Below, piece by piece: positions 1 through 20,775 of a stretch of 28,104 nucleotides of DNA. Location: contig CAYSHM010000018.1 in NCBI GenBank assembly GCA_964430885.1, positions 1-28,104 on the forward strand, in the 5' to 3' direction. Source of the stretch: an uncultured archaeon (GTDB lineage: Archaea; Thermoplasmatota; Penumbrarchaeia; JASLWR01). The notes under the pieces are model-generated. The model saw only the letters and a list, made by a program, of their open reading frames with translations, had not been told where the DNA came from and searched no databases. The position numbers were made by a program, and so were the translations under genes. How positions within the stretch are numbered: the stretch's first letter is position 1; every line of letters begins with the position of its first letter.

Positions 1-44
1 TGTTTTACCATATTTCAGGGCTTAAAGTACATATAGTTGACTTC

Positions 45-95
45 TTATAACGCCTTTATCTGCGATTTGGATAAATTCAGGTAAAGGCGTTATGG
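45..95. repeat. Inverted repeat / attC-like hairpin with AAC...GTT ends, 25 bp past the integrase stop
   Basis: Arm 47-62 ATAACGCCTTTATCTG and arm 78-93 CAGGTAAAGGCGTTAT are 15/16 complementary. An inner stem GATTT/AAATT closes a GGAT loop and leaves one unpaired C at 63. The inverted repeat is certain; a recombination-site role is inference. Confidence 0.7.
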
Positions 96-120
96 GAGGT
101 TGGCCCGCTGCGCTTTGGAG

Positions 121-1278
121 TTAGAGGATGAAAGGTAAGCGATTTCGTTCTTCAGATATACTGTCTAATGGGCTGATTATGCGAGATATGTCTCTTTTGC
201 ATACATGTGTGTAGATCTGTGTTGTTTCGGCTTTTTTATGGCCTAGCATTTCTTGGATATATCTTAGATTAATGCCTCTTTCCAGTAGATGTGTGGCGAA
301 ACTGTGTCTTAATGAATGTACTGAAGCTTTTTTCTTGATCCCTGCTGTATTTAAAGCTTTTTGGAAACTTAGCTCTACTGCTCTTATTGATAAATGGGTA
401 TTGATCTTTCTTCCGGGAAAGAGCCATTTCCCTTTTGGTCTGAAGCTGTCGATATAATGACATAAGGCTAGGTATGCTTTTTGTGAAAGTACAGTGTATC
501 TATCCTTCTTACCCTTGCCCCCTTTTATATGGATAACTCCGCGGTCTGGATGAATGTCACCATCCTGTAAGTTAACTGCCTCGCTGATCCTGAGACCGGA
601 CGAGTAGATCAGCATGAACAATACCTTGTCCTTGGTGTTCTTTACTGATGCGAATATTCGATGTATTTCATTTTCGCTTAGAACGACAGGCAGTTTGAAC
701 TCTCTTCTCGGGCGTTTCACCTTCTGCCAGATATCAGGTTTCTTTAATACAAGTACAACAAATTTCTTTATTGCACTGATTGAGACATTGAAGTATGGTA
801 AAGATGCCTGTTTTTTTTCTCTTAGGAATGCTAGGTACTCACTTATTTCCTGCATTTTGAGGTCTAGGGGGCATCGGTTATGGAAAAGAAGGAATTTCTT
901 CAGATGTCTGCTGTAGTTTTCGATAGTGTTTTTGCTGAAATTCTTTATCAGTAATTTCTTTTTGAACCTGTCTATGAGGTATGATATGCCGTCTGAATCT
1001 GGACCGTTATGGAAACTAAGATCCTTTATCAGCTCAGTACTCAATGATAATTCAGCATTATTAAACTCACTCATAAGCATTTTTGCATCTATTGTGTCTT
1101 TTGGGATCATCCAGTATCGGTATTCAGGGTGCCATACCCCACCTAACTTTAACATTCTTCCAATTGGATGGGTAGTATTCAGGAAAGTTAATCTTATGAA
1201 TTCTTCATTACTTTGGCTCCCGTGTTTATTATTTTTATTTAGTTCAGTTACCTTATCGGCTAGTACTACTAGTTCCAT
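121..1278 (-). CDS. Tyrosine recombinase, integron-integrase-like architecture (N-terminal extension + SAM-like domain + catalytic domain), without the IntI-specific insertion
   Basis: Catalytic motifs YSSGLRISE (R), GKGKKDR (K), HSLRHSFATHLLE (HxxR) and LGH...TTQIYTHV (H, Y). SAM-like segment FSKNTIENY...ISEYLAFL, linker KLPVVLS and C-terminal ISPLD. RBS-like AGAGGT lies upstream of the ATG. Confidence 0.93.
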   Translation of the reverse strand: MELVVLADKVTELNKNNKHGSQSNEEFIRLTFLNTTHPIGRMLKLGGVWHPEYRYWMIPKDTIDAKMLMSEFNNAELSLSTELIKDLSFHNGPDSDGISYLIDRFKKKLLIKNFSKNTIENYSRHLKKFLLFHNRCPLDLKMQEISEYLAFLREKKQASLPYFNVSISAIKKFVVLVLKKPDIWQKVKRPRREFKLPVVLSENEIHRIFASVKNTKDKVLFMLIYSSGLRISEAVNLQDGDIHPDRGVIHIKGGKGKKDRYTVLSQKAYLALCHYIDSFRPKGKWLFPGRKINTHLSIRAVELSFQKALNTAGIKKKASVHSLRHSFATHLLERGINLRYIQEMLGHKKAETTQIYTHVCKRDISRIISPLDSISEERNRLPFIL

Positions 1279-1708
1279 TATATTACCTCTTACTTTATTG
1301 CGATATATTATTTTATAAAATCAATTGACATTTCTATTAAAAGTAATTAATAATATATAAACGGTAAGTAGGGAGGTTGGTGAAACAAAATGATAGCATA
1401 GTTTAATTAATCAATTATTAATTAAATGGATTTTCGAATAATAGGATTTAGGAACGTTTTTTATCCGAAGAACATTTTCGGGAAGTTATTTTGGAAGATA
1501 CTTTGCTCCCTTTTGGTTGATAGGCTATAATGTGGCAGTATTGATTCAAAGGCATTATATATCTAAAAATAAACCTGTTAAAGAAAAATCTATGTATCAA
1601 GGCGGCTTTGTCAAATATTATCATATTTGATTTATGATTTGAGACATAGAAATTTTAAGATGAATTGGTAAGCGAGAGACTCACTCAAGCGGATAGGAAG
1701 GTGGAAGA

Positions 1709-3649
1709 ATGAAACATTCATGGTTTAGAAAAATATCAATATTACTGTTCTTTATAATTACAATTGCAGGATCATTTTCAATAGCTGTGTTCGACCCGGT
1801 CAAGAGCCAAATTATCAATCCTGTCATCATCACCAATATTGAACTGGTTACCTTGGAGGAAGAATCATTTACAGTATCCTGGGTGACAAGTACGGAAGCG
1901 GACACGGTGATACAGTGGGGTGAGACCGAGGAGCTAGGGGAAGAGCTCACCATCAACGAAACAACCCAATACCATATCATCACTGTTGACGGCCTGGAAC
2001 AGGGGACTGAGTATTATTACAGGATCGGGGCAGGAGGGCGATGGTCGGGTATTGAGAGCGAAACCACCCTGGTGCCGCCTGAAGGAAATCACCGGGCCAA
2101 TATCGCTATTGTAGCTGACACTCATTATGATTCAAACGGGGAGAACACTGCCAACGGCAATATGTATGCCGACAGCCATCATATCACTGACAGCCTGGTA
2201 AATGAGCTCAATTCTGATCCATCAATAGATTTTGTTATTACCCTTGGCGACCTTACCAACGGCGAACTGGATGATTACATCAACTACTCTGCAGTAATGG
2301 ATAAGCTGGAAATGGAGTGGTATCCAGTCCTCGGGAACTGGGACAAACAGAACAGCAACTGGTCGGTATGGTATGAAGATTATTTCCGCTATGACCGGAC
2401 CTATTATTCGATCGAGAAATACGGTTATTCTTTGGTGGTTCTGGACAGCGCTGTGGAGGGAGAGATAGCCGGCAGTATTGATGAACAGCAGCTGGAGTGG
2501 TTTGAACAGACACTTGACGATAATGCCGGCAAACCGGTGATAGTATTCATGCATCATATGATTGATAGGACAGATGTTTTCGGTGTGGACCAGGATACCA
2601 AGACCAGGTTGGAGAATATACTTTCCGGAAGAAAGAACGTATTGGGTGTTTATTCAGGACATATGCATAAGAACATCGTCACCGAGGACAGCGACGGACG
2701 GTATCTGGTGACAGTGGCGGGAACGGTACAGTATCCCTCGGGCTACAGCATCATGAAACTGTATGAGGAAGGTTACACCCAGAGCTTCAAGAAGATAGAA
2801 TCTGTGCTTGATATATGCGAGGAGAGCCGTATGAGGCTCAAGGCCTCCAATGTGAACCCGAATGCCGATCAGGAAGCTTTGGGTGATATGGAGGATCGAA
2901 ATTTTGCAGTTACGATACCCGTTAACCATCCTCCTGTTTTGTCAGGTATTGAAGTGAGCAATTACGTCATACCTCCCGGAGGAAAGACCACAGTCATGGC
3001 GGATGCATCGGACCCGGATAACGATACTTTGGAATACGTCTACGAAACAACTGGCGGGGAAATCATCGGCGAGGGAGACCAGGTGGAATACCTGGCTCCT
3101 TCAGCGGGGGGGGAATACGAGATCAGCGTAAAGGTCAGCGACGGGGAGTTTATGTCGGATGAAAAGACCGTAGAGATAAACGTGGACCCTGACATGGTGA
3201 ACAGCCCACCGAGGATTGTCGAAGTGGTTCTTGGTATAAATGAGGTGGTAATAGGTGAAAAGGTCAGTATAACCGTTGATGCCAGGGATGACGACGGGGA
3301 TGATATCATCTACCATTATAGAGCGGAGAATGGAGTGATCATCGGTTCGGGCAGCAGGGTGGAATGGGAAGCCCCATCGACTCCGGGCGACTATGATATT
3401 GACATATGGGTTTCCGATGGGAAACTGGATTCCGCTGAGAGGACAGTTACGGTCAAAGTTTCGGACAGCGGGGATGATGATGGAGGGGATGACGACGATG
3501 GGGGAGGGGATGGAGATGATGATGACGGTGGTAACAGCGGCGGTGGTTCAGAGGACGGAGATGACGGCGGAGCAACACCCGGATTTCAATTCTTCCTGAT
3601 CCTGGGCGCGGTCTTTTTGATCTGCTTGGTAAGGATAAGAAGAGAATGA
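1709..3649 (+). CDS. Secreted calcineurin-like metallophosphoesterase with N-terminal FN3/purple-acid-phosphatase-type domain, two Ig/cadherin-like repeats, G/D-rich linker and PGF-CTERM anchor
   Basis: N-terminal hydrophobic signal. FN3-like VSWVT...GLEQGTEYYYRIG. Metal motifs ADTH, GDLT, GNWD, MHH and GHMH. Repeats NHPPV...DASDPDND...VSDG and NSPPRI...DARDDDGD...VSDG. C-terminal PGF + TM + RIRRE. Confidence 0.9.
   Translation: MKHSWFRKISILLFFIITIAGSFSIAVFDPVKSQIINPVIITNIELVTLEEESFTVSWVTSTEADTVIQWGETEELGEELTINETTQYHIITVDGLEQGTEYYYRIGAGGRWSGIESETTLVPPEGNHRANIAIVADTHYDSNGENTANGNMYADSHHITDSLVNELNSDPSIDFVITLGDLTNGELDDYINYSAVMDKLEMEWYPVLGNWDKQNSNWSVWYEDYFRYDRTYYSIEKYGYSLVVLDSAVEGEIAGSIDEQQLEWFEQTLDDNAGKPVIVFMHHMIDRTDVFGVDQDTKTRLENILSGRKNVLGVYSGHMHKNIVTEDSDGRYLVTVAGTVQYPSGYSIMKLYEEGYTQSFKKIESVLDICEESRMRLKASNVNPNADQEALGDMEDRNFAVTIPVNHPPVLSGIEVSNYVIPPGGKTTVMADASDPDNDTLEYVYETTGGEIIGEGDQVEYLAPSAGGEYEISVKVSDGEFMSDEKTVEINVDPDMVNSPPRIVEVVLGINEVVIGEKVSITVDARDDDGDDIIYHYRAENGVIIGSGSRVEWEAPSTPGDYDIDIWVSDGKLDSAERTVTVKVSDSGDDDGGDDDDGGGDGDDDDGGNSGGGSEDGDDGGATPGFQFFLILGAVFLICLVRIRRE
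3466..3570 (+). repeat. Low-complexity Gly/Asp linker (GAT/GAC/GGN codons) inside the phosphoesterase gene
   Basis: Translates to DSGDDDGGDDDDGGGDGDDDDGGNSGGGSEDGDDGG. Confidence 0.85.
3578..3646 (+). other. PGF-CTERM archaeal protein-sorting signal (archaeosortase A-type substrate)
   Basis: PGF motif, hydrophobic helix QFFLILGAVFLICLV and basic tail RIRRE at the extreme C-terminus. Confidence 0.85.
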
Positions 3650-3652
3650 ATA

Positions 3653-4360
3653 TTATTTTAATCGGTCCTGCACCTTTTCGCTTGTTAGTTCCTTCAGGGC
3701 TGTTCGGGCTATCCATTTTGAGGTCTTGTCGCTGGTTGATAGAAGCTGTTCGGCGATGTTCACGGCCGTTTTGTTCATTTCCTTGTTGCGTTTGCCTATC
3801 TGCCTAAGGGCCCAGCTCACTGCTTTTTTTACAAAATTACGGGGATCTGTGGAGTATTTGATTATCAGGGGGATGAAGGGTCTGAATTTGTCGTCCTTGT
3901 TTATGGTCGTTGTATTCTTGTCGTGGACTGCCAGCCATGCCATTAGGGCAAAACCCGCCCGCCTTACGAACTCTCTCTTATCATGCGCCCATTCCTCGGC
4001 CTTTGGGTAGGCGAATGGTGTTTTATCAAAAAGTGTTCCCGTTGCTGTATCGGTTATATCCCAGGAATTGAACTCAGAGGCCCAGCGATCCATCTGCTCT
4101 TCGGTCACCTCAGCCGGATGATCTACCATAGAAGCCAGCATCCGGGCGTCCCTGTAGCCGGCATCCCAGAGTTCAAGTGCGAGAGCGTGGTTTGGGCGGT
4201 GCCGTTTTGCGTATTTGCGAAGCTGGGTCACAGAAACTCCCAGGTTCTTGTCGGGATTGATGCCGAACCGGGCCATGCCTTCAATGTTCTTACGGGTGCC
4301 CTTTTCCCTGAGTTCATCGAGTATACTCCTGGTTTTTTCTGACAGCATGGGATCAGCCAC
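3653..4360 (-). CDS. DNA alkylation repair protein (AlkD-like HEAT-repeat family)
   Basis: Typical motifs GMARFGI, LGVSVTQLRK, LALELW, FNSWDITD, EFVRRAGF and RNFVKKAVSWALRQIGKRN. The start is either GTG 4360 or ATG 4348. The gene begins 9 bp after the pfk stop. Confidence 0.85.
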   Translation of the reverse strand: MADPMLSEKTRSILDELREKGTRKNIEGMARFGINPDKNLGVSVTQLRKYAKRHRPNHALALELWDAGYRDARMLASMVDHPAEVTEEQMDRWASEFNSWDITDTATGTLFDKTPFAYPKAEEWAHDKREFVRRAGFALMAWLAVHDKNTTTINKDDKFRPFIPLIIKYSTDPRNFVKKAVSWALRQIGKRNKEMNKTAVNIAEQLLSTSDKTSKWIARTALKELTSEKVQDRLK

Positions 4361-4369
4361 ATTCGCATT

Positions 4370-5398
4370 TTATGGGAAGAAATACTTGGCCACTTTATAG
4401 AGGTCGTCCTCCACTATCCGCCTCTTGCCAACGCCTTCGGTGAGGTCAACAGCCCTCATCTGGTCGCTCTTAATGCTTATCATCTTGCCGAACTCGCCGT
4501 TGTTGACCATCTCTATTGCCTTTACGCCGAGACGCGTTCCGAAGATACGGTCGAAAGCTGACGGTGCGCCCCCTCTCTGAATATGTCCTAAATTGACCAC
4601 ACGGGTATCGAAACCTGTCCGCTTCTTTATCTCGTCGCCTATGACCTGACCTATACCGCCCAGCCTTACGTTGCCGAACTGGTCCTTCTCGTCGTTCAGG
4701 GTCACAAAGCCCTCGTCCTCGTCCAGCTTGAAACCTTCCGCAACTGCCACTATACTGAAATCCCTTCCCGAATGGTGCCTGCGTTTTAAGGATTCGGTTA
4801 TGCTCTCTGCGGTCATGGGTTTTTCGGGTATCAAGATCATGTCCGCCCCGCCTGCCATACCTCCCAAAAGCGCTATGAAACCCGAGTGCCGGCCCATAAC
4901 TTCAAGGACCATTACCCTGTGGTGCGATTCAGCTGTTGAATGAAGCCTGTCTATTGCCTCCATGACTATGTTGATGGTGGTGTCGAAGCCTATTGTGGTG
5001 TCAGTGCCTGAAAGGTCCCTGTCTATTGTCTTGGGTACGCCTATGACGTTTATTCCGCCCCTGTAAAGCCCCAGGGCTGCGCCCAGTGTGTCGTCGCCTC
5101 CTATTGCAATAAGTGCTTCTATACTGAGGTTTGCCATTACGGATTTGACCTTCTCTATGCCGTTCTCAACCTTCAGGGGATTGGTCCTTGACGAGCGGAG
5201 CATGGTGCCTCCCTTGTGGAGGATCCCCGAGACCACGTTGCGGTCCAGCACTATGTAATCGCCTTCCAGTATGCCCTTCCAACCGTTCTTGAAACCTATC
5301 ATTCTATGTCCGTCGGCTATACCCTTTCTCGTGGCGGCCCTGATAACCGGGTTGAGTCCGGGACAATCGCCGCCTCCTGTAAGAATCCCTATCTTCAT
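4370..5398 (-). CDS. pfkA: PfkA-family 6-phosphofructokinase, mixed-substrate group III type, predicted PPi-dependent
   Basis: Motifs LTGGGDCPGLN, GGTMLRSSRTNP, IGGDDT, PKTIDRD, EVMGRHSG and LGHIQRGG. Start placed at ATG 5398 (MKIGIL) because AAGGTGA lies just upstream; the ORF track uses GTG 5407. Confidence 0.93.
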   Translation of the reverse strand: MKIGILTGGGDCPGLNPVIRAATRKGIADGHRMIGFKNGWKGILEGDYIVLDRNVVSGILHKGGTMLRSSRTNPLKVENGIEKVKSVMANLSIEALIAIGGDDTLGAALGLYRGGINVIGVPKTIDRDLSGTDTTIGFDTTINIVMEAIDRLHSTAESHHRVMVLEVMGRHSGFIALLGGMAGGADMILIPEKPMTAESITESLKRRHHSGRDFSIVAVAEGFKLDEDEGFVTLNDEKDQFGNVRLGGIGQVIGDEIKKRTGFDTRVVNLGHIQRGGAPSAFDRIFGTRLGVKAIEMVNNGEFGKMISIKSDQMRAVDLTEGVGKRRIVEDDLYKVAKYFFP

Positions 5399-10465: not shown

Positions 10466-13400
10466 CTATCCTCTGATAACCACTCTCTCGCCGCAGTGAG
10501 GACATGCCGCTGCCGCAGGGAACTGCTTCAGCATCACCGCAAAGGCGCCGGCGCAGCTGGGGCACTTTACCCTGACCTTCTTGGGAGCGTCCTCCTCAGG
10601 CTGTTTTCGGGGTTTTGGTTCCTCTCTGGGTCTGGACGACTGTGTCGGAGCAGGGGGCTCAGGACCCTCGTAATTGGAGAGTATCCTCTTTATATGCTTG
10701 GCGTTCTTGATACTGAGTTCATACTTGCCTGAATCAAGGGAGTCCTTGGAAACCTTCAAAAGTGCCTCCACCTTCTTTGCCGTAGGTGTCTCAATCTTGT
10801 CCTTCTTTGTATCGTACTCGTCACGGGCGTCATCAAGTACCATACCGGCTATCTTCTGGCGTCTGCTGTTGATCTTGGCCTTGAGCTTCACAATGACATT
10901 CTTCAGTATGGTGATGGCCTTGTCGATGTCCTCCTCCTCCAGAAGTCTGCCCGCCTTTGTATTGAGCTTGAGCTCGGCATCGATATCCGCTGCAAGGTCC
11001 CGGGCGGCCTCCACATACTTGTCCACTGTCTCCACCAGCTTGTATGCCTCGTCCCTATTGGACATTTTGTCCCGCAGCTCGGTGATCATCTTCTCCATGA
11101 CCTCTATCTTTTCCTCCATCTCCTTCCATTCCGAACCGGAATAGTGGGACTGAAGGTCCTTTATGGCGCTTCTCATGACCTTGAGGTACTTGTCTGAGAA
11201 ATAGGGTTTCTTCTTTATCTCCAGGTAGAAGGCCTCCACTGATTTGAGCCGGGCGAAGAGATGGTTGCCTATGATACGGTAATAAGCGCTGTCCAGGCTC
11301 TTCTTCAGGTTCAGGCTGCCTATATATGCCTTCATGAACCTCTCCTGGTCTAGGTGGTCCAGAATGGCCGTGAACTTGGATTCGAGCTGGGAGGAATCAC
11401 GTCTGCTGTTTCTGAGAACATTCAGCTTGGGGTCCATCTCGGATATGTTGTTCTCTGCCCTGACCTTGAGCTGCGCGTTGAGATCGCTCTTCATGAAATG
11501 CCTCATCTCGGTCATTGTATCAGTGGCCTGGCCGTAGTAACCCTTCTCGATCTGCTCCCTGCCCTTTGAAAGGAGATTCTTGCCCTCGGTCGTATCTATA
11601 TCCAGACCCTCATATCCCAGGAGGCGCTCTTCCAGCTTTGCCAGCTTGGACTTATAGAGGTCCTTCTCGTTGGACGATCTCTGCAGTTCCAGGACCTCGG
11701 TGAACTCCTTCAGTTTCCGATTGATCAGTTCCAGATCCCCGGCGGAGGATGCGTCCAGTGCATCGTTGAGTATCTCCTCCAGATCAGGGTAGTCCTTTCC
11801 GGTATTATCCTTCAGTTCGTCTAGGTCCTCGAATGCCATGTCCAGCTCGTCCTGGGCTTCCTCCAGTTTTCTTACCTCAAGGGCCTTATTTATGGTCTTC
11901 TCCAAGCTCTTCAGAATCTCAACAGCCTTCTTGAAATCGCCCTTGGATTCACGCTCGTTTACATCTTCCCAGGTCTTCTGGATGTCCTCTATCTTCACCC
12001 TGTCCTCCTGGGCAAGCTGCATTAGAGACATTACTTCCTCCTTCTTCTTTTCAAGCTGACTTCCCATGACCGAAGCTATCATATCCTCCGCCTGTTTGTG
12101 AAGCTCCTCCAGCTTCTTTTCCGCATTTTCCTGATCCTCTCCTGCCATAAGGCCGTTTATCTCCGAGAGACGCATCTCCACCACATCCATGTCCAATCCG
12201 AGGTCACGTCCCTCCAGTATCATGGACTCCACCTCCTCGTATATTATATCCATCCTCTTTGATCCTGCCTCCCTGCGGGCCTTTAGGCAAATCTCCACGG
12301 CTTCCCTGGCAAGCTCCTTGGCCTCCTCGAACTCCTTCTTTTCCAGCGTATCCCTGGCTCGTATCAGCAGGGCTTCGCTGTTGAAATCCTCAAGATCCAG
12401 CTCTTTGTTCCGCTCCAGTTCCTTTTCCGCCTTGCCAATCACCATTTGGGTCTCAATGGGCATACGTTCCTCAGTGAGCCTGTCCAGGTTGGTGCTGAGC
12501 TCCGGCAGGGTATCCACGCATTGCTCGTAATCGTTATCCCTGATGTTTTTCTGGCATTGTTCCATCTGCAGCTGTATCACCTTGATGGGATCCCTGAGCT
12601 GTCTTATAGCGTTATGTCCAAGGTCCCTTATGACCTCCAGTTCTGCCCTGAATCGGTCCTTGAGCTCCTTGAGCTCATCCTTTCCTCGCCCCTCGATATG
12701 AGTTTTGTAAAGCTCCTTAAGTTGGGTCTTCATGTCAAGAAGCAGGTCTATTGCCGGGTCCAGGTTTCCGGCCTCATGCTCCCTGTCTGCCTTTGCCCTC
12801 ATGCTGACCAGGGCCCCAGGTGTATCAACTCCCCGTTTCTCGTTCCGGGCCAGCTGCTGGTAGATCTCCTCGTAGAGTGACGAAAACTGTTTCTCCTTAT
12901 CCATGCGGATCTCCAGCTCGGCCTTTAGCACCGCAAATCTCTCCATTTCCGCTCTGGCCCCTGCCTCTTCCCCGCTGTCCACCATGACCTCCAGCTCGTC
13001 AAGGTCCCTGAGCATCTCCTCCTTCCGGGCATCGGAAATGAAGGGCTTGTTTCGGGCAAGTTCAACGAACTCGGATATGTCCTTCACCTCGGCCTCCAGC
13101 CTTAAAAGGCGCAGGTCCCTTAAGGTGTCCAGGGTCTGCTGGAATTTCTCGGAAGAAAAGTGGTCTCCGGCCTCATCCAGGAGCTCGCGGGCCCTGTCAG
13201 TGTCCAGGCCCAGCCTCGCCATCTCATTGATCACTTCTGGTGCCCTCTCAAGGTCAGCCTGGGCGTTCTGCTTCATATGGTCCCTGTTGATCCGGGCCAA
13301 TATGTTCCTAGCCTCAATACATTTATCCCGGCAGTCGGCGAACCGCTCCTCCCTGTAATCAGCCCTTGCCTCTGTAAGGATGGGATCGGCTCCGCTACCG

Positions 13401-16400
13401 CTGTAGATATCCTCCCCGAGGTTCTCCCTGATCTTCCCAGCCATATCCTCCACCTCACGGAGGATGGCGGTAGCGCCGGAAAGCTCGTCCTCCCTCCTGA
13501 GACCGTCAATGTATTCCATGAGACTGTCGGCCTTTTCGCTGGCAGACTGGAACTTCTTCTTGTTCAGTTGGGTGTTTATATCGTACTGTTTCTGCCTCAG
13601 GTCCTTGATGACATGCCTCTCCTCGCACTGATCGATGAACTCCTCCGCCTTTGCCAACAAGCCCTCCACCTTCAGGGTGTAGTAGCTCTCCATCCTCAGC
13701 TCCAGGGCCCCCTCCACCTTGATCATGTTCTCCACGGCGGAGGAATAGTTGCCGTTCTTGAAGGCCATCCTTATATCCATGAACGCGTCCTTCTGGTCTG
13801 ACAGGTCTATACCCTTGAGCTGAAGGTCCCTGAAGGATGCCCGAAGGGCCGTGACCTTCTCCTTCGCCACGTCCTTGAGGCTTGTCTCCGCCTCGTCCAG
13901 TGATTCCAGGATGGTGGCCTGAAGCTCGAAGAGGGGGTCAAGTTCCCCTGCCTCGATATGCTCCCTGGCGCTGTTCAGGAGCTCCTCCGCTATGGGAGCG
14001 GAGAATCCGGCCCTGCCAACGTCCTGCAGCCTGATCTCCAGATCGCCGAACACAGCAGGGAAAACCTCCTTTAGAAGTATTGTCCTGAATCCCTTCATGG
14101 ATCCGCCGAACTCCGCTAGGAAGGCCTCCGAGTTGTCCAATTCATTCTCCTTCATGGCTATATCGGCGTTGGTAAGGCTGTTGCCCATGGACAGCAGTTT
14201 GGAGCTCTCCTCGGGATACTGCTCCTTGAGGTCCTCCATCTCCCTCTTGAGTGTATCGTAGATCCGCAGAGCCTCGGTTATCCTTTGAGCAAGCTCATCC
14301 TTTCTGGCCTTAGTGAGTTTGCTTTTCAGCTCTTCCACCACCTCCCTGAGCTCCAGCGTTGTCGAATAGTATGCGCCATCCCGGGCTGACTGGCTGAACA
14401 GGTCCCGGGATTTATCCTCGCTATCGGTATCAAGCTCGGCCTTCACCGCCTCGTCAAGCAGAACACCGAACTCCTCCGTCTCCTCCTGGTACATGGGCTG
14501 GTAATGGCGGTTCAGAAGGTCGGTCAGGTCTGCCCTGAACTCCTGGGTTCCCCGTGAGACCTCCTCGTAATCCTTTGCCTCTAGGTGTAGGTCCAGCTCT
14601 TCCAGGCGCTCCAGGTACTCCGAGAGGTCCAGTTCCTCCTCTTCTGCCGTCATGAGGAGCTCCCTGCATCTCTTGATATTGTCAGAGGCTCTCTGATACT
14701 TGGTCTGCACTATGGCCTTTTTCAGCTCGGCCAGGATATCCTCGGCCTGGTCGTGGGCCTGTTTGAACATATCTTCCTCGAACTTGAGGCTGGCCCCGCC
14801 GTAGCTCTCGCTGAAATAGTCGAGATCCACATCGGGTTCGCCGTCCAGTATCCCGCTGATCTCAGCCAGGAGCTCAGAGGCGCCATCCTTGAAGAATCGG
14901 TCCCTGTTGACAGTGCACAGCTCCTTGGCCCTGACCGCCAGCTCGGATGCCCTGGAGAATATGTTGTTATTGAAACTGTCCTGAGCCTCCTCCATCATCC
15001 CATCGGCCTCTGGGTTCTGTATACCGATCTCCTTCAGCTCGTCCAGCATGGCCCGGCCTTCCACCAGGAGGGTGAAAACTCCCTCCATGAAGGGTTTCTG
15101 CTTCTCCAGGAGCACATCGTTGAGCTGGTCCAGCAGCCGGAGGGCCAGGATATAATCCTTCTCCTCGGCGGCATTCTCGGCACGTTCCATTACCCCGGTT
15201 TCCTCGGTGAGGTCGGTCTCATGGGCCTTCACTTCCTCGTAGAGGGACCGGACCCTGGGCAGATTCACATCCAGCAGCTTCTTCCCCTGATCCTGCCTCA
15301 CATGCTCCACTATACCCTCGGTGGCCTCCTTGTACTTCTCAAGGGCCCGGGCATCGCCCTTCCTGGCGGCCTCAACGGCCAGGGCACAGGAGTCCCTGAT
15401 ATTGGCGACATTCATGCCCAGGGATTCCCACTGGTCTATGTTCTTCACGAACTCGTCCCTGCCCCGTATATATTCACTGCAGAACCGGTTCTTCTGCTCC
15501 AGGTCTATCATGTTCTTCAGATTTTTGATGGCGTCCTCTATGAACTCCAGGGCCGACTCGTCATCGCCCTCCTCCATATCAGCATCGGCATAGTTAAGAA
15601 GGGACTCCTCGGAAACACTGTCCAGTCCCAGATCCTCGGCATCCTGGATAAGGTCCCTGGCCTCGGCCATTTTCTCCTTGGCCTTGTTCTTCAGGAACTC
15701 GGTCTTCCTTGAGGTGTAGATCTTCTGGGCCCTCTCGCACAGCACCTGGGTCTCGCCGTAATCCCCTTCCTCAAATAGACCATAGGAGCCGTAGACTATC
15801 TTGTCAACGGGATGGATGTTCATGCCCAGCTCCTGACCTTCATCCATGAGCTTCTGGAGCTCGTCAAGCCTTTCCTGGGCGCACTGTTTATCGTAATCCT
15901 GTTTGATCTTCCGGGCAAGGGCGACGGCCTTCTCAGCCAGCTCACGGGATGCAAGGAAATCCTCCTCGTCGAACTTCACCCGGGCTTCGGCAAGTCCCGC
16001 CGAGACCTCTTCACGGTCCAGACCTATCTCTTCAAGGGTGGACAGAAGCTGTTCTGTGAGGTCCATGGCCTTCTGGGCCTGGTCCCTGCGGTATTCGGTC
16101 CTTATATCAAGTAGAGAGGTCTGCAGCATATCAACGGTCTGGCATCCTCCCAGGAAGTCCTTGTTCTGGATATGATTCCGGATCCCGTTGAACTCCCTCT
16201 TCTCCCGGTCCAGGTCCAGTCTCAGCCTGTTGAGCTCCACGAAGAGCTTCTTTGCGCTGTCTATACGGCCCCTGAGCTCATGCTTGGCCGTTTCCTGGCC
16301 AATATGCTGAACCATTTTCTTGACAGACCCCACCTGTTCCTGGGCCTTCTCCAGATCTGTTTCCTCCACAAGATGCAGACCCGCCTCTATGGCTTCCTCG

Positions 16401-19400
16401 ATCTCATCGGCTTCGATACGGGCCTTTCTGATCTCGGACACATTCTCCCTGAATCCTTCCAGGGCCTCTCCGGCGAGTTTAAGCTGGAATGTGCGCTCGT
16501 GGTCCCCGAGGTTGGTCTCATAGCTCCCGAATAGACGGTCCACTTCCTGGTACTCCTTGTTCTTTATGGCGTCCTCGGCAAGGTCCAGCATCTCGCAGAG
16601 GTCCTGGTACTCACCGCCGGTCCTGTCAAGGAACTTCTCCAGTGAAAGTCTGCATTCCTCTAGATCGCCTTCCTTGAGCTCGGTCTTCTTGGCATCTATG
16701 GTATTATGAAGCTGATCCCGGGCATTATCAATGAGCTCTATCGCCTGGTGGTACTCCAGGGTCTCTCTGAGCTGGTCGGATTGTGTAAGAGATCCGTCTG
16801 CCGATTCAGTATCGAGTTCGTACTCTTCGGCCTCGGTCATCAGCTTCCTGAGAATTTCCTGCTTTTCCGCCAGGATCTCGTCCAGCTTCCGGTCCACACG
16901 GGTCTTGATATCTGAATACAGTTCACGGAGGTCCATGAGCGACTTGTATATCTCGCCCTCCTGGAATACATTCTTGGTCTCCATGAAGCGCTCCTCAAGG
17001 TCGCTAGTGTCAACCTCCAGGCCCTGGCCTTTGACCAGCATCTCGTTCCAATCGTCGGTCTCGGCGGAGTATAGTTTTCGAATCTCCTTCTCACGGAGGG
17101 CCCTGTATTCCCTGAGGGCGGAATCCGCCGTTTCCTGGGCTTCCTGGAACCTGTCCTCTTCCAGCTCCTGGCCGGCCTTGTCCATAATATCCTCCATGGG
17201 ACTTATGTCCAGAGAGAACTCCTCGGCTCCCTTCATCTCTTCCCTTACAGAATGAAAGAGCTCCTGGGTACATTTCCAGTCATAGGCCGCCTTGATGGAC
17301 AATCCCTCCTCCTCGGCCTTACCGGCAGCGGTCTCTGACTCAACGTAGTCCCCGTCGGAGAACCGGGATTCGGCATCCAGAAGGAAAGCCTCCACGGAAG
17401 CTGTGTCCAACCCAAGTTCCCTGGTGACCTCCAGTATTTCATTGGCCTTATCCATGGCGACTTCCGCCTGACCCCGGAGGTAATCAGTCTCGATCTCCTC
17501 CATGGTCACTGCGAGCTCATCCACTATGGCGCATCCTTCCACATTCCTGTTCTCGGAAAGGGCGCCCTCGGCAGATGCGAGTATGGTCTCCTGTTCCGAC
17601 AGGTCCAGCTCGGTGTCCTCAAGGCGCTGGAAATATTCCCTGACAGCTTCAAGACGCCGGTTGAGCTCGTCCTTGGCGGTCTCGTTCCTGAGTTCTTTTA
17701 GAAGTTCATCCACTTCCGTCAGGGTCTCCCCGGCTCCTTCAAGGTCGTCTTCCTCTATCTGCTGGAGGGCCTGTGTGATAGATTCTGATATGTGTTCGGT
17801 AGAGATGTCGACATTGTCGATGGGTTCAAGTTCGCCGGACCTCACCTCCAGGGTTTTCTTTGTCTCATCAAGATTGAAATCCCTGAGATGTCTTTCCCTC
17901 TTGGTCGCGAACTCAGCAAAAAGGGTATCGGCGCCGTCATAATCCTTGTCGGTGATGGAGCTCTTGGCGGTATCCAGCATTTCCTGCAGGTCCTGGTACT
18001 CCGCATCGGTCTCGGCCATTATCTCCGAGAGAGAGGAGGTGCACTCCTTGAGCTGGTCGGACCTCATCTCGGTCATCCGGTCATCCAGCGAGCCCTTGAG
18101 AGCTTCCGCACGGTCTGTGAGAAGCTGAATAGCAGGTTCAAGTTCGCCCTCCCCGCGCATTTCGTCAGCCTTCTCCAGGTCTCCCGCTGCGGGATCGATA
18201 TACTGGGCGGACAGCTCTATGCATTCGCCCATCTCCATGAGCTCCTCGATCTCCTCCCAGTGCTCGGACAGAAGCTCCAGAAGCCGGTTCTCGATCTTGC
18301 CCTCCAGAGCCTCGGTGAGTATCAGGGCGGTATCCAGGGCCTCGACGTATTCCTCGTTCTTGAAAACGACACTGAGCTCCCTAAGGCTGGAGGCTTCCCC
18401 TGTGATATCGATTTCCAGCCCCTTGGCCTTCCCCATGAGCTCCTTCAGGATCTGGAACTGGTCCCTGCATGCGTTCTTGAAATGTATCTTCTTGGTCTCT
18501 GCGATCATGTCATATACTTCACGGGAAAGCTTCAGGGCTGCAATGTGATCATCATTCGCTATAAATTCCGTAACCTTTGCCAGTTCCCTCTCCTCGGCAG
18601 CGAGGTCAACACCCAGATTGGCAGTTTCATCAAAGTAGGCTTTTGAAGAAACAAGCTGCTCCTGGGCCAGCGGTTTGGCCTGGACCATGTTGGCGTTCTC
18701 GATCATTTCCTTTATCCAATCTATCCTCTTCTTGATGCTCTCCAGCTCGCTCTCGGATATGTCGTCCTTCATGGTTACCAGGGTTATCTTCTCCCTGACA
18801 ACCTCCAGCAGTTCATCGCCGGATTTTATATCGACCTCCACTTCCCTGACCCTGTCAAGGCCGTCCTCCAGACCATCCATCATGTTCCCGTACTCCTCGA
18901 CCTGGTGGAGACGGTCCTGGAGATGCAGCTCCTCCTTGAGCTCCTCTTTGAGAGAGTCAACCTCGGAGAATTCCCCCTTCATGAGGACCTTTGCGGACCT
19001 GTTCAGCAGATAGCGGGCATCGGATAACTTGCGTCCAGTGGTTTTCTCAAGTTCCCTGAGCTCCCTGCTCATATCCTCCAGGTCCTGTTTTCTCATGGTG
19101 GTGTTCCTGTCATAGATGGCCTTTTCGGCATTCTTGTTGACCTTCTTCATGAGCTCGATGGCTTTCTCAAGTTCACCATCCTCTGACAGCTGGTGAGCCT
19201 CGGCGGCGGAATCCATGATACTGGAAAGGTCAGCTTCAATCGGTCGGGCCTGGTCCTCCATGGTGCCCAGATCCTCTTTCATCTGTTGGATCATATCGCT
19301 CATAACACTATTAAGGGCGGATCCCATATCCTTCAATACCGGGGCTGAACCGGTGTAGGCTTCTCTGAACTCTTCCTTTTCCATGAGCTCCTTCAGCCCG

Positions 19401-20200
19401 GAATGGTTTTCCTCATAACCCGCGAGGTCCAATTCGAACTTCTCACCCTTCTCCAAAAGCACCTGTAATTCGGACATAGCAGACTCCGCCTTTTCCTTGA
19501 AAAGATCTTTCAGGAGGGATATATAGAGCTGGTGGGCCTCCTCGGCTTTGTGATGGGCGGATTTGAAATCCTTGTCCTGGTAAAATGACTGCGCTTCCCC
19601 GTTAAGGGACTGAACGGCATCGGTATCCATACCGAGCCCCTTTCCTTCCTCCATTGATTTCTTGAGTATGGACAGCAGTTCGCTGCTCCTCTGGGAATGG
19701 AAGGATTGACGGCACGAATCCAGGCTGTCCTTGAGACTGGGGAATAGGGTTAGCACCTGTATATAATCCCGGTCCCTGACCCTGTTGGATATCTCTCGGA
19801 AAACCTTGTTGGCATCCTTGAGGTCAACACCCATGGAACGCATCTCGGTAAACTCTTTATGAGTGTTCTTCAGGATATTTCGGGCCATCTTCTTGGCGCC
19901 CTTTCTCTTCACAGAGCTAATCTCGTAATTCAGGGCTGCCATCTGGTCTCCCAGATCGGATGTGTCACCTTCCTGTAACCTGCCCATGGCATCCTGGAGC
20001 ATCTTCCGGGCCTTGCCCAGGTTCAAACCTAGATCGGTGAGAATACCTATATCCTCTTCCTTTTCCTTCAAAAAGGACTCAGGGTCCTTGATATCCATAC
20101 CTTCATCCTTGAACCGGGCCAGTTCATCAAGCAGTCCGGGTTCGTTCTTATCTGTTCCAGAAGTTTTTTCCTCCGCATTCATCCTGTTTTCGGCCGTCAT
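10466..20200 (-). CDS. Giant acidic alpha-helical repeat protein (about 3244 aa) with C-terminal C4 zinc ribbon; function unknown
   Basis: Uninterrupted 9.7-kb ORF, E/L/K/D/A-rich, with units of about 66 aa of the form LG(L/M)D....L..A......(G/D)(D/E)(Y/F)..A. Ends in a Pro-rich linker and CPSC-x16-CPHC. Start placed at ATG 20200 (MTAENR, with GAGCTGGT upstream); the ORF track uses TTG 20302. Confidence 0.9.
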   Translation of the reverse strand: MTAENRMNAEEKTSGTDKNEPGLLDELARFKDEGMDIKDPESFLKEKEEDIGILTDLGLNLGKARKMLQDAMGRLQEGDTSDLGDQMAALNYEISSVKRKGAKKMARNILKNTHKEFTEMRSMGVDLKDANKVFREISNRVRDRDYIQVLTLFPSLKDSLDSCRQSFHSQRSSELLSILKKSMEEGKGLGMDTDAVQSLNGEAQSFYQDKDFKSAHHKAEEAHQLYISLLKDLFKEKAESAMSELQVLLEKGEKFELDLAGYEENHSGLKELMEKEEFREAYTGSAPVLKDMGSALNSVMSDMIQQMKEDLGTMEDQARPIEADLSSIMDSAAEAHQLSEDGELEKAIELMKKVNKNAEKAIYDRNTTMRKQDLEDMSRELRELEKTTGRKLSDARYLLNRSAKVLMKGEFSEVDSLKEELKEELHLQDRLHQVEEYGNMMDGLEDGLDRVREVEVDIKSGDELLEVVREKITLVTMKDDISESELESIKKRIDWIKEMIENANMVQAKPLAQEQLVSSKAYFDETANLGVDLAAEERELAKVTEFIANDDHIAALKLSREVYDMIAETKKIHFKNACRDQFQILKELMGKAKGLEIDITGEASSLRELSVVFKNEEYVEALDTALILTEALEGKIENRLLELLSEHWEEIEELMEMGECIELSAQYIDPAAGDLEKADEMRGEGELEPAIQLLTDRAEALKGSLDDRMTEMRSDQLKECTSSLSEIMAETDAEYQDLQEMLDTAKSSITDKDYDGADTLFAEFATKRERHLRDFNLDETKKTLEVRSGELEPIDNVDISTEHISESITQALQQIEEDDLEGAGETLTEVDELLKELRNETAKDELNRRLEAVREYFQRLEDTELDLSEQETILASAEGALSENRNVEGCAIVDELAVTMEEIETDYLRGQAEVAMDKANEILEVTRELGLDTASVEAFLLDAESRFSDGDYVESETAAGKAEEEGLSIKAAYDWKCTQELFHSVREEMKGAEEFSLDISPMEDIMDKAGQELEEDRFQEAQETADSALREYRALREKEIRKLYSAETDDWNEMLVKGQGLEVDTSDLEERFMETKNVFQEGEIYKSLMDLRELYSDIKTRVDRKLDEILAEKQEILRKLMTEAEEYELDTESADGSLTQSDQLRETLEYHQAIELIDNARDQLHNTIDAKKTELKEGDLEECRLSLEKFLDRTGGEYQDLCEMLDLAEDAIKNKEYQEVDRLFGSYETNLGDHERTFQLKLAGEALEGFRENVSEIRKARIEADEIEEAIEAGLHLVEETDLEKAQEQVGSVKKMVQHIGQETAKHELRGRIDSAKKLFVELNRLRLDLDREKREFNGIRNHIQNKDFLGGCQTVDMLQTSLLDIRTEYRRDQAQKAMDLTEQLLSTLEEIGLDREEVSAGLAEARVKFDEEDFLASRELAEKAVALARKIKQDYDKQCAQERLDELQKLMDEGQELGMNIHPVDKIVYGSYGLFEEGDYGETQVLCERAQKIYTSRKTEFLKNKAKEKMAEARDLIQDAEDLGLDSVSEESLLNYADADMEEGDDESALEFIEDAIKNLKNMIDLEQKNRFCSEYIRGRDEFVKNIDQWESLGMNVANIRDSCALAVEAARKGDARALEKYKEATEGIVEHVRQDQGKKLLDVNLPRVRSLYEEVKAHETDLTEETGVMERAENAAEEKDYILALRLLDQLNDVLLEKQKPFMEGVFTLLVEGRAMLDELKEIGIQNPEADGMMEEAQDSFNNNIFSRASELAVRAKELCTVNRDRFFKDGASELLAEISGILDGEPDVDLDYFSESYGGASLKFEEDMFKQAHDQAEDILAELKKAIVQTKYQRASDNIKRCRELLMTAEEEELDLSEYLERLEELDLHLEAKDYEEVSRGTQEFRADLTDLLNRHYQPMYQEETEEFGVLLDEAVKAELDTDSEDKSRDLFSQSARDGAYYSTTLELREVVEELKSKLTKARKDELAQRITEALRIYDTLKREMEDLKEQYPEESSKLLSMGNSLTNADIAMKENELDNSEAFLAEFGGSMKGFRTILLKEVFPAVFGDLEIRLQDVGRAGFSAPIAEELLNSAREHIEAGELDPLFELQATILESLDEAETSLKDVAKEKVTALRASFRDLQLKGIDLSDQKDAFMDIRMAFKNGNYSSAVENMIKVEGALELRMESYYTLKVEGLLAKAEEFIDQCEERHVIKDLRQKQYDINTQLNKKKFQSASEKADSLMEYIDGLRREDELSGATAILREVEDMAGKIRENLGEDIYSGSGADPILTEARADYREERFADCRDKCIEARNILARINRDHMKQNAQADLERAPEVINEMARLGLDTDRARELLDEAGDHFSSEKFQQTLDTLRDLRLLRLEAEVKDISEFVELARNKPFISDARKEEMLRDLDELEVMVDSGEEAGARAEMERFAVLKAELEIRMDKEKQFSSLYEEIYQQLARNEKRGVDTPGALVSMRAKADREHEAGNLDPAIDLLLDMKTQLKELYKTHIEGRGKDELKELKDRFRAELEVIRDLGHNAIRQLRDPIKVIQLQMEQCQKNIRDNDYEQCVDTLPELSTNLDRLTEERMPIETQMVIGKAEKELERNKELDLEDFNSEALLIRARDTLEKKEFEEAKELAREAVEICLKARREAGSKRMDIIYEEVESMILEGRDLGLDMDVVEMRLSEINGLMAGEDQENAEKKLEELHKQAEDMIASVMGSQLEKKKEEVMSLMQLAQEDRVKIEDIQKTWEDVNERESKGDFKKAVEILKSLEKTINKALEVRKLEEAQDELDMAFEDLDELKDNTGKDYPDLEEILNDALDASSAGDLELINRKLKEFTEVLELQRSSNEKDLYKSKLAKLEERLLGYEGLDIDTTEGKNLLSKGREQIEKGYYGQATDTMTEMRHFMKSDLNAQLKVRAENNISEMDPKLNVLRNSRRDSSQLESKFTAILDHLDQERFMKAYIGSLNLKKSLDSAYYRIIGNHLFARLKSVEAFYLEIKKKPYFSDKYLKVMRSAIKDLQSHYSGSEWKEMEEKIEVMEKMITELRDKMSNRDEAYKLVETVDKYVEAARDLAADIDAELKLNTKAGRLLEEEDIDKAITILKNVIVKLKAKINSRRQKIAGMVLDDARDEYDTKKDKIETPTAKKVEALLKVSKDSLDSGKYELSIKNAKHIKRILSNYEGPEPPAPTQSSRPREEPKPRKQPEEDAPKKVRVKCPSCAGAFAVMLKQFPAAAACPHCGERVVIRG
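15650..18001 (-). repeat. Intragenic higher-order tandem repeat, period 1389 bp (463 aa)
   Basis: TCCTGGTACT (part of EYQDL) occurs at 17991 and 16602. Downstream landmarks also recur: ETAKDEL/ETAKHEL, GCAIVDEL/GCQTVDML, YLRGQAEVAMD/YRRDQAQKAMD and YDWKCTQE/YDKQCAQE. The left boundary is approximate. Confidence 0.75.
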
Positions 20201-20775
20201 TTTTACCAGCTCATTTTTGTTTATAGACAATTGTAAGTAGGGTTTTGGTGCAGTTAGTGGGATCCTTTGTGCAATCCAAATGGTCAGAGTATTATTCTCC
20301 AAACCTGGATAGGGCTAGAGGATATTCCTCTGCCAAGTGCTTGTACTGTATATTTCAGGCGATACAGCCCTTGAGCTTCCCGGAGTATTTACCCGAATGA
20401 AGCAGGGCGTCATCTCCGCCGGCCGATGGTGGAAAGGCCAGATATGGAGTTAGCAGGTTCGCATGGGTCTAGAACTCCTCCTTCGAACCCGGTGCGGTCT
20501 GCAGATATTTATCGGGTGACCCTTTGACATTCCTAGGGTTTTCTAAAGCTTTCATATGGTATTATATAGGGCATTATCTAGGGTAATCAAACATACCGTA
20601 TGCGAGGTAAAATCACCCTTTCAAAATCTGATATATATTTATTGATAATTAAATATTCCTATGATTGAAAATAATAAATATATAAGGATTTTTTCAAGAA
20701 AATGCAAATATGCTAGGAATTTTCAGAAGGTTTTGGGAGAATTCATACAGCTTAGAGGAACGTTCACACTGTCCC

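Follow-up and report, generated by a model that had tools for sequence, protein, structure and literature searches.

An extended Xer-like recombinase beside a palindromic site in an archaeal genome, the probable head of an integron-like gene-capture platform

The DNA analysed here, referred to throughout as the window, is a stretch of 28,104 nt (contig CAYSHM010000018.1 of assembly GCA_964430885.1, positions 1 to 28,104) from an uncultured archaeon of the Thermoplasmatota lineage Penumbrarchaeia. At its left end, a gene for a tyrosine recombinase is followed past its stop codon by a hairpin and then by the start of a further unit (Table 1). The features of this locus and of its relatives suggest that it is probably the head of an integron-like gene-capture platform run by a recombinase other than the integron integrase IntI. 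The metagenome-assembled genome (MAG) that contains the window, designated G000, comprises 3.13 Mb in 44 contigs, is 91.6% complete and carries a full-length match to the archaeal small-subunit (SSU) rRNA model (1503.7 bits) on contig C2. Contig C18 ends at window base 1, and nothing further to the left is present in the assembly.

Table 1. Features at the recombinase end of the window (positions of the window; ORF, open reading frame)
Feature	Position	Strand	Remarks
Start of unit beyond the site (cassette or conserved flank)	1..46	-	ORF from ATG 11-9 runs off the contig
Motif CTTTAAGCCCTGAAATAT	10..27	-	Kept in nearest relative G002; inverted copy about 1.6 kb on in a metagenome contig
Hairpin/palindrome, 12-bp perfect arms, 19 pairs in total	47..93	.	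Read as a probable attI-type primary recombination site
Nine-nt core AGGCGTTAT (recombinase strand)	47..55	-	Common to both metagenome contig types
Tyrosine recombinase gene	121..1278	-	385-aa ORF; Pfam PF00589 and PF13495 matches
Catalytic domain with R-K-H-R-H-Y, residues 199-360	199..684	-	PF00589; invariant family columns
Residues 272-295, position of the ~40-aa specific domain of IntI	394..465	-	22 residues only here; phmmer against 2a3v
SAM-like core-binding domain, residues 101-180	739..978	-	PF13495
N-terminal extra domain, residues 1-100	979..1278	-	Not present in XerA, XerC/D or IntI

Identification of the gene product as a SAM-like tyrosine recombinase with R-K-H-R-H-Y intact, made earlier from the letters of the window alone (the sequence-only reading), was borne out by the Pfam matches, of which that to PF00589 (Phage_integrase) had an E value of 6.7e-41, and by an alignment of seven family members in which R230, K255/K258, H321, R324, H347 and Y356 were invariant. 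The further claim that the IntI-type insertion between KDR and HSLRH is missing was upheld by three comparisons. In the alignment with VchIntIA (2a3v, Vibrio IntI4), residues 109-272 of the query corresponded to chain residues 13-177 and residues 295-372 to chain residues 241-318, leaving about 41 VchIntIA residues (178-240) unmatched. The spacing from KDR to HxLRH was 63 in the window recombinase as opposed to 68 in a XerD and 103 in an IntI3-like protein, and the IntI hidden Markov model (HMM) TIGR02249 aligned to the protein as two pieces, with model positions 178-233 jumped. Thus, by alignment, spacing and HMM, the protein lacks the IntI-specific domain around patch III. Its scores fell below the cut-offs of both IntI models (196.7 versus 265 bits for TIGR02249 and 133.3 versus 435 for NF011946) and above that of the archaeal XerA model NF040815 (228.2 bits, cut-off 220), to which NCBI gives the name 'site-specific tyrosine recombinase/integron integrase'. 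Alignment with Pyrococcus abyssi XerA (4a8e) was colinear over query residues 102-368. The IntI-specific insertion was missing from all seven aligned long forms, and the recombinase can be described as XerA/XerD-like, extended and devoid of the domain specific to IntI.

The extension includes an N-terminal module of about 60 residues that is common to the seven aligned long forms, and a motif around W49/W56/P59 of the N-terminal domain is kept across the recombinase family. The AlphaFold2 (AF2) model of the N-domain of the window protein (pLDDT 73.5) gave as its top fold match the N-terminal domain of T4 UvsW (Z 6.0, rmsd 2.2, 62 residues aligned) and as a further match the N-terminal half of archaeal XPB (Z 4.8), scores that lie under the secure level of the tool and may reflect a shared arrangement alone. 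Pfam HARP (PF07443) matched the N-domains of 7 of 22 family members (best E 3.4e-4) and DUF5710 those of 8 of 22. The window's own N-domain matched no Pfam family, HARP included; a Foldseek search of this domain against the PDB returned nothing at E <= 0.001, and a protein Atlas feature search returned no score of 0.9 or above. The N-terminal domains of HARP, UvsW and XPB are related structure-specific DNA binders, and the modelled domain is probably a HARP-like module of the same kind.

The hairpin of 47 bp that the sequence-only reading had placed 27 bp past the recombinase stop was recovered as a perfect 12-bp inverted repeat with arms at 47-58 and 82-93 and more pairs inside, beginning at that distance. 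Its folding energy of -13.9 kcal/mol (z = -6.9) was equalled by none of 200 shuffles, and no stronger inverted repeat was present within window 1-1750. The ATG at 11-9 on the minus strand, also predicted to run off the window, was found as described. One explanation for a hairpin at this place is that it merely marks the end of a transcript or has a regulatory role, with ordinary strain variation unrelated to the recombinase accounting for the contig break and for the branching described below. Its short distance from the stop codon and the fact that it is not kept as a hairpin in the nearest relative, G002, agree with that explanation, whereas the terminator scan found nothing at 47-93 and no T-run is present, the branching occurs at the very base where the hairpin ends in GTTAT, and the loci of two congeneric relatives (G001 and G003) break at the same GTTA position. 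A mere transcript 3' end, which the sequence-only reading had named in advance as one finding that would refute its proposal, is consequently very improbable.

A different outcome was obtained for the proposal that the hairpin is the first attC of a cassette array. The attC-like sites of the family have a bulge of 4-6 nt 5' of GTT, and the window hairpin is fully paired there. Because this bulge is missing, because the position matches that of the palindromic attI-like site of relatives and because the branch in the metagenome contigs falls directly after GTTAT (46|47), an attI-type primary site is a likelier identity for the hairpin than an attC.

The branching was noted when independently built Logan contigs were compared with window 1-1400; they came from four marine-metagenome runs of one study that contain the region, two of which may be its source. 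A contig of about 28 kb covered the window from position 47 on, and in run X1 the letters of window 26-46 were replaced on it by 21 others. The second type, of about 1.8 kb and present in three runs, covered window 1-55 and then went on with a different sequence. The two contig types overlapped solely in window 47-55, and around the place where the hairpin ends in GTTAT, junctions of at least three types exist. The crossover may accordingly be placed, from these letters, within the nine-nt core or at its 3' edge, and the 21-letter overhang would be the outcome of a k=31 assembly graph if the same core also precedes the downstream unit elsewhere. On the 1.8-kb contig, window 10-27 was repeated in inverted orientation at record positions 1680-1697, about 1.6 kb away. 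This contig had about twice the depth of the 28-kb contig (approximately 25 versus 13), a comparison of one figure per contig that was not used as evidence.

Loci of archaeal relatives were informative as to what may follow such a site. The best matches in 41 related genomes covered the N-terminal 100 residues, and their 3' sides were strikingly near contig ends; in five of seven archaeal loci, the 3' DNA amounted to merely 120, 169, 310, 53 and 277 nt (i.e., less than 350 nt to the contig end). In two loci with longer 3' sides (G003:C7 and G010:C146), an attI-like GGAGTTAKGCG(A/T)AAT motif preceded by palindromes was noted about 110 nt past the stop, followed by ORFs for a Schlafen/AlbA_2 protein with HATPase_c_4, for a small protein and a PIN_2 toxin, and for a UDG-family protein. 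After each of these ORFs came a site of 100-110 nt composed of R''(..YAAC), a stem of 10-12 bp, a loop, a stem, 4-9 unpaired nt and GTTAKRCG, with fold z values of -4.4 to -5.0. Folded, the sites of the relatives presented an R stem and an L stem with an asymmetric loop between them (1-3 versus 4-6 nt), followed by a variable loop; none of the canonical extrahelical bases was identified in them. Palindromes abutted the GTTA core at +60 to +130 nt in the relatives. The loci of G001 and G003 showed 85-90% identity over a stretch that began 1.8 kb upstream of the gene and reached 119 nt beyond the stop; after GTTATGCG they were unrelated. Downstream content in close homologues was thus variable, with divergence at the GTTA site, and the constant downstream gene that would have spoken against the sequence-only reading was not found.

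The first cassettes of G003 and G010 were bracketed by perfect inverted repeats of 15-17 nt outside the R boxes (L021, 10212-10283 and 11829-11865; L022, 4439-4453 and 5197-5211), and therefore the folded site in a cassette circle would be far longer than the R''-R' hairpin. This bracketing resembles the inverted copy of window 10-27 on the 1.8-kb metagenome contig. In L022 (G010:C146), similar dif-like palindromes (about 11-6-11) flanked the recombinase gene at 3088-3160 and 4353-4420, two copies lying 5' of the recombinase start and two 3', before the GTTAGGCG core.

The association of the extended recombinase with arrays was also evident outside this archaeal group. More than 602 relatives came out of a scan in which each species was represented by a single genome, and 79 loci were kept, mostly from Bacteria (Bacteroidota, Spirochaetota, Gemmatimonadota and Bacillota) together with DPANN archaea. 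Long Bacteroidota loci contained rows of co-oriented genes with attC-like sites between them, 3' of the recombinase, and the same layout of recombinase, co-oriented genes and chained sites was found on a closed Chryseobacterium plasmid. Two Bacteroidales MAGs (L031 and L053) had at least two co-oriented downstream genes with repetitive intergenic motifs. Within arrays, the sequence after a GTT and the sequence before the AAC of the following site were reverse complements, a chained complementarity that should be the trace left by cassette circles recombined at G|TT. A first attC finder, which required the R'' and R' of a site to be complementary to each other, gave 22 matches in 527 kb upstream and 33 in 445 kb downstream; it missed clear arrays (L078 and L081), as the pairing partner of R'' is the R' of the site before it, and a chain test was therefore used instead, in which an exact 6/6 link was required between the flank after GTT and the flank before the AAC of the next site.

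The chain test was applied to 85 loci (L021-L105), namely 40 extended forms (ORF of at least 340 aa), 40 short forms and five truncated ORFs that were set aside. Extended forms yielded 14 downstream links in 10 loci (151.5 kb) as opposed to one upstream link (307 kb), whereas short forms yielded no downstream link (266 kb) and zero to one upstream link (220 kb). Flanks of less than 2 kb were found downstream of 21/40 and upstream of 5/40 extended forms; the corresponding figures for short forms were 10/40 and 17/40. Short-form relatives from Pseudomonadota (about 290 aa, a 25-row clade in the tree described below) belong to the same wider family and have no N-domain and no chained downstream sites; these may be comparable to IS91-family elements with an upstream tyrosine recombinase. 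A separate metagenome scan gave 12 loci with a single long form (L114, 42% identity). Inside the array of the Chryseobacterium plasmid (L138), an IS110 transposase and a group II intron reverse transcriptase were noted on the opposite strand (16266-17267 and 18732-20048); group IIC introns are associated with integrons according to the available portion of PMC7923331.

Arrays of this kind could in principle be canonical integrons served in trans by a true IntI whose gene lies elsewhere and was not assembled, with the extended recombinase as a bystander at array heads. Gaps in MAGs that are 83-93% complete leave room for such an enzyme, and six true IntIs from archaea appear in the available portion of Ghaly et al. 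(PMC9668308). Against this, no protein reached an IntI model cut-off in any of five genomes (G000-G003 and G010), array-bearing ones included, the association with array heads was directional and restricted to the extended form, and the site abutted the gene in all lineages examined. A trans-acting IntI is the least probable of the explanations weighed here.

The relation of the window recombinase to Xer enzymes requires closer consideration. In a FastTree tree of 97 proteins with only two IntI rows, the window recombinase paired with that of G002 (support 98) and then with those of G001 and G003 (96) in a 10-row clade of extended forms (95), outside a nine-row clade that contained the short XerA-type proteins of the class (99). 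Orthology with the XerA of the lineage (about 270-310 aa, two domains) was thus not found, given the separate clade and the N-terminal addition of 100 aa. The window recombinase also stood apart from XerC/D and from the two IntI rows, although deep nodes were poorly supported (46). The phylogenetic comparison with XerA, XerC/D and IntI that the sequence-only reading had called for therefore settled one part, the separate extended-form clade, and left the relation to IntI at a deep node of low support. Among 301 genomes sampled from the phylum, the long form was found in eight, including 4/4 of family f1 (G000-G003), and with the window protein as query no short XerA-type recombinase was found in those four. 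Class relatives in family f7 carry XerA-type genes of 266-313 aa. In another locus, L024 (G035:C9), the extended recombinase of a genome classed as archaeal nested in a Flavobacteriaceae/Bacteroidota clade (support 100), which may reflect gene transfer or a mis-binned contig of 430 kb.

These data bear on a further explanation, namely that the recombinase is the Xer enzyme of the cell or the integrase of one integrative element, that 47-93 is a dif-like or att site and that the branches are occupied and empty forms of it (IMEX-like). Consistent with such a role are the universal presence of the gene in family f1 with no short form detected beside it, the dif-like palindromes that adjoin the gene in G010 and in the archaeal genome G150, the flank conserved with G002 and the metagenome contig types, which also fit attL, attR, attB and attP forms with a 9-bp core. 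It is, however, difficult to reconcile with the position of the protein in the extended-form clade rather than the short XerA-type clade, with the patchy occurrence of the long form in the phylum and with the relatives, which have successive cassettes with chained sites and not one element. Nor were mobile-element genes found flanking the recombinase gene, the 5' neighbours of which are of an ordinary chromosomal kind (genes for a surface phosphoesterase, DNA alkylation repair, phosphofructokinase (PFK) and an aldolase). A housekeeping Xer or single-element role is accordingly considered unlikely, if distinctly less so than the two explanations dealt with above.

In the reading favoured here, with a probability of about 0.65, an archaeal recombinase other than IntI runs an integron-like gene-capture platform, and the locus forms its head. 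Such a head would consist of the recombinase gene and then, on the same strand, the primary site formed by the palindrome ending in GTTAT. The recombinase would cut at or beside G|TT of this site, and the cut site would be joined to the GTT of a folded attC-like hairpin (R''...AAC, stem, loop, stem, 4-6-nt bulge, GTT...R') on a circular cassette. Cassettes would accumulate downstream, one after another, and point the same way as the recombinase gene. The exchanges would be catalysed by the window recombinase on sites that act as folded single strands, and the N-terminal domain would take the place of the missing IntI domain in reading these sites. The feature itself is real and beyond chance. 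As far as the platform proposed by the sequence-only reading is concerned, a non-IntI recombinase with a co-oriented insertion site was supported by the cassettes of relatives, by the break between G001 and G003 and by the branching at GTTAT, while the cassettes themselves were not visible in the window. An array may nevertheless be present in this genome; none is visible because the contig ends 46 nt beyond GTTAT.

Several observations weigh against the platform. No cassette, attC or second site was found in the window or elsewhere in the MAG, and no Logan contig crossed 46|47 with 31 nt on each side, so that the join in the MAG has no independent confirmation. Between G000 and G002, 17/19 bases of the flank were identical at the same distance of 20 nt beyond GTTAT, and an exact 14-mer of the shared flank occurred at the recombinase locus only in either genome; such conservation is more readily expected of a fixed flank than of a cassette that moves freely. 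In G002, which retains this 19-nt flank, the hairpin is not kept. In G150, attI-like palindromes were present and attC sites were not recognisable in 10 kb. Among extended loci with at least 900 nt downstream, an exact link was found in 10/31 and none in 21/31. Finally, the recombinase is the sole PF00589 match, and hence the sole tyrosine recombinase found, in G000, with no DNA paralogue of its gene in that genome, and an enzyme in this position that passes the XerA cut-off suits a housekeeping Xer role.

Among known systems, the closest in layout are sedentary chromosomal integrons, above all those with an 'inverted' intI co-oriented with the cassettes, described for Spirochaetota in the available portion of PMC9668308. 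These likewise have a tyrosine recombinase at the head of the locus with the primary site adjoining it and, as in the relatives described here, cassettes that are bounded by AAC...GTT hairpins, show R'/R'' complementarity across each cassette and carry toxin-antitoxin and defence-like genes. Unlike the integrases of these integrons, the window recombinase has no IntI domain, scores below the IntI HMM cut-off (197 versus 265) and carries an extra N-domain. The family sites differ from canonical attC in having a bulge of 4-6 nt 5' of GTT and not the canonical extrahelical bases, and the putative primary site in the window is a palindrome of 47 nt. Integrons were reported from 75 archaeal MAGs with 539 attCs and six IntIs, mostly as CALINs, all six IntIs having the IntI-specific domain and attI lying directly downstream of intI (Ghaly et al. 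2022, PMC9668308, available portion). In the part of Data S1 available for that study, all five Thermoplasmatota genomes had attCs and no IntI. Integrases were admitted in that work, as far as its available text indicates, only with the IntI-specific domain, and the window recombinase would escape such a method.

A second comparison is with rAID-1 of Bacteroidales, in which a XerD-family recombinase is followed by co-oriented genes and by intergenic repeats 'reminiscent of integrons' (Ross et al. 2019, bioRxiv 10.1101/471110, available portion; the same definition appears in the available portion of PMC12247911). To count as rAID-1, a recombinase must reach 44% identity to BF9343_RS08045, and the locus is further defined by its content of immunity genes; the comparison with the window locus is by description only. 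The available portions of both accounts describe no mechanism, site structure or archaeal member. Archaeal XerA/dif (4a8e, 5hxy) gave the best structural-sequence match of the window protein (138.7 bits, colinear), with the same two-domain core and inter-motif length. Unlike XerA, the window protein begins with 100 additional residues and ends in an SPLD tail alignable with IntI4; it is patchily distributed and has a variable region at its site. Archaeal attC arrays (PMC9668308) and Bacteroidales arrays behind a XerD-like recombinase (10.1101/471110) are thus known from the portions of these sources available. In the literature searched, no account was found of an archaeal non-IntI case, of its mechanism, of chained-site evidence or of the N-terminal domain.

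The importance of these results lies in the dependence of integron detection and theory on the IntI-specific domain. If a recombinase without this domain heads arrays in archaea and bacteria, standard searches would miss most integron-like platforms, the IntI domain would be dispensable for cassette capture or the sites would be used differently, and a Xer-type origin of integrons would become testable with natural intermediates. The gain from the window alone is smaller, consisting of one archaeal lineage and of population-level branching at the predicted crossover with the array out of view. It is conceivable, as a speculation to be held with considerable doubt, that most archaeal CALIN attC arrays, and many bacterial ones, are worked by the extended Xer-like family instead of by IntI, that this family reads folded sites via the HARP-like N-domain and that in the present archaeal family it may double as Xer/dif, which would make it a living Xer-integron intermediate.

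Further observations concern the surroundings of the locus. No synteny of the window neighbours with G001, G002 or G003 was found. The 3' attC motifs of G003 and G010, searched in G000 with at most two mismatches, gave 37 and 5 matches, none in a hairpin context, and a genome-wide attC finder gave 56 matches in the 3.13 Mb, among which two apparent clusters resembled coding sequence and were rejected. A 13-mer search of G000 for a contig continuing window 1-130 returned scattered single matches only. Many G000 contig ends overlap other ends by about 96 nt, as at branches of the assembly graph, and the left end of C18 shares none. In AT-rich DNA 5' of the recombinase start, window 1540-1563 reads CAAAGGCATTAT, which differs by two mismatches from the hairpin arm TAAAGGCGTTAT, possibly by chance. 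The G+C content was 35-39% over window 1-2000 and about 52% over the remainder of the window, compared with approximately 40-46% for most G000 contigs. It was 51-59% in the stretch that contains two giant minus-strand ORFs, one at 10466-20302 (3278 aa) and one at 20836-28104 (at least 2416 aa).

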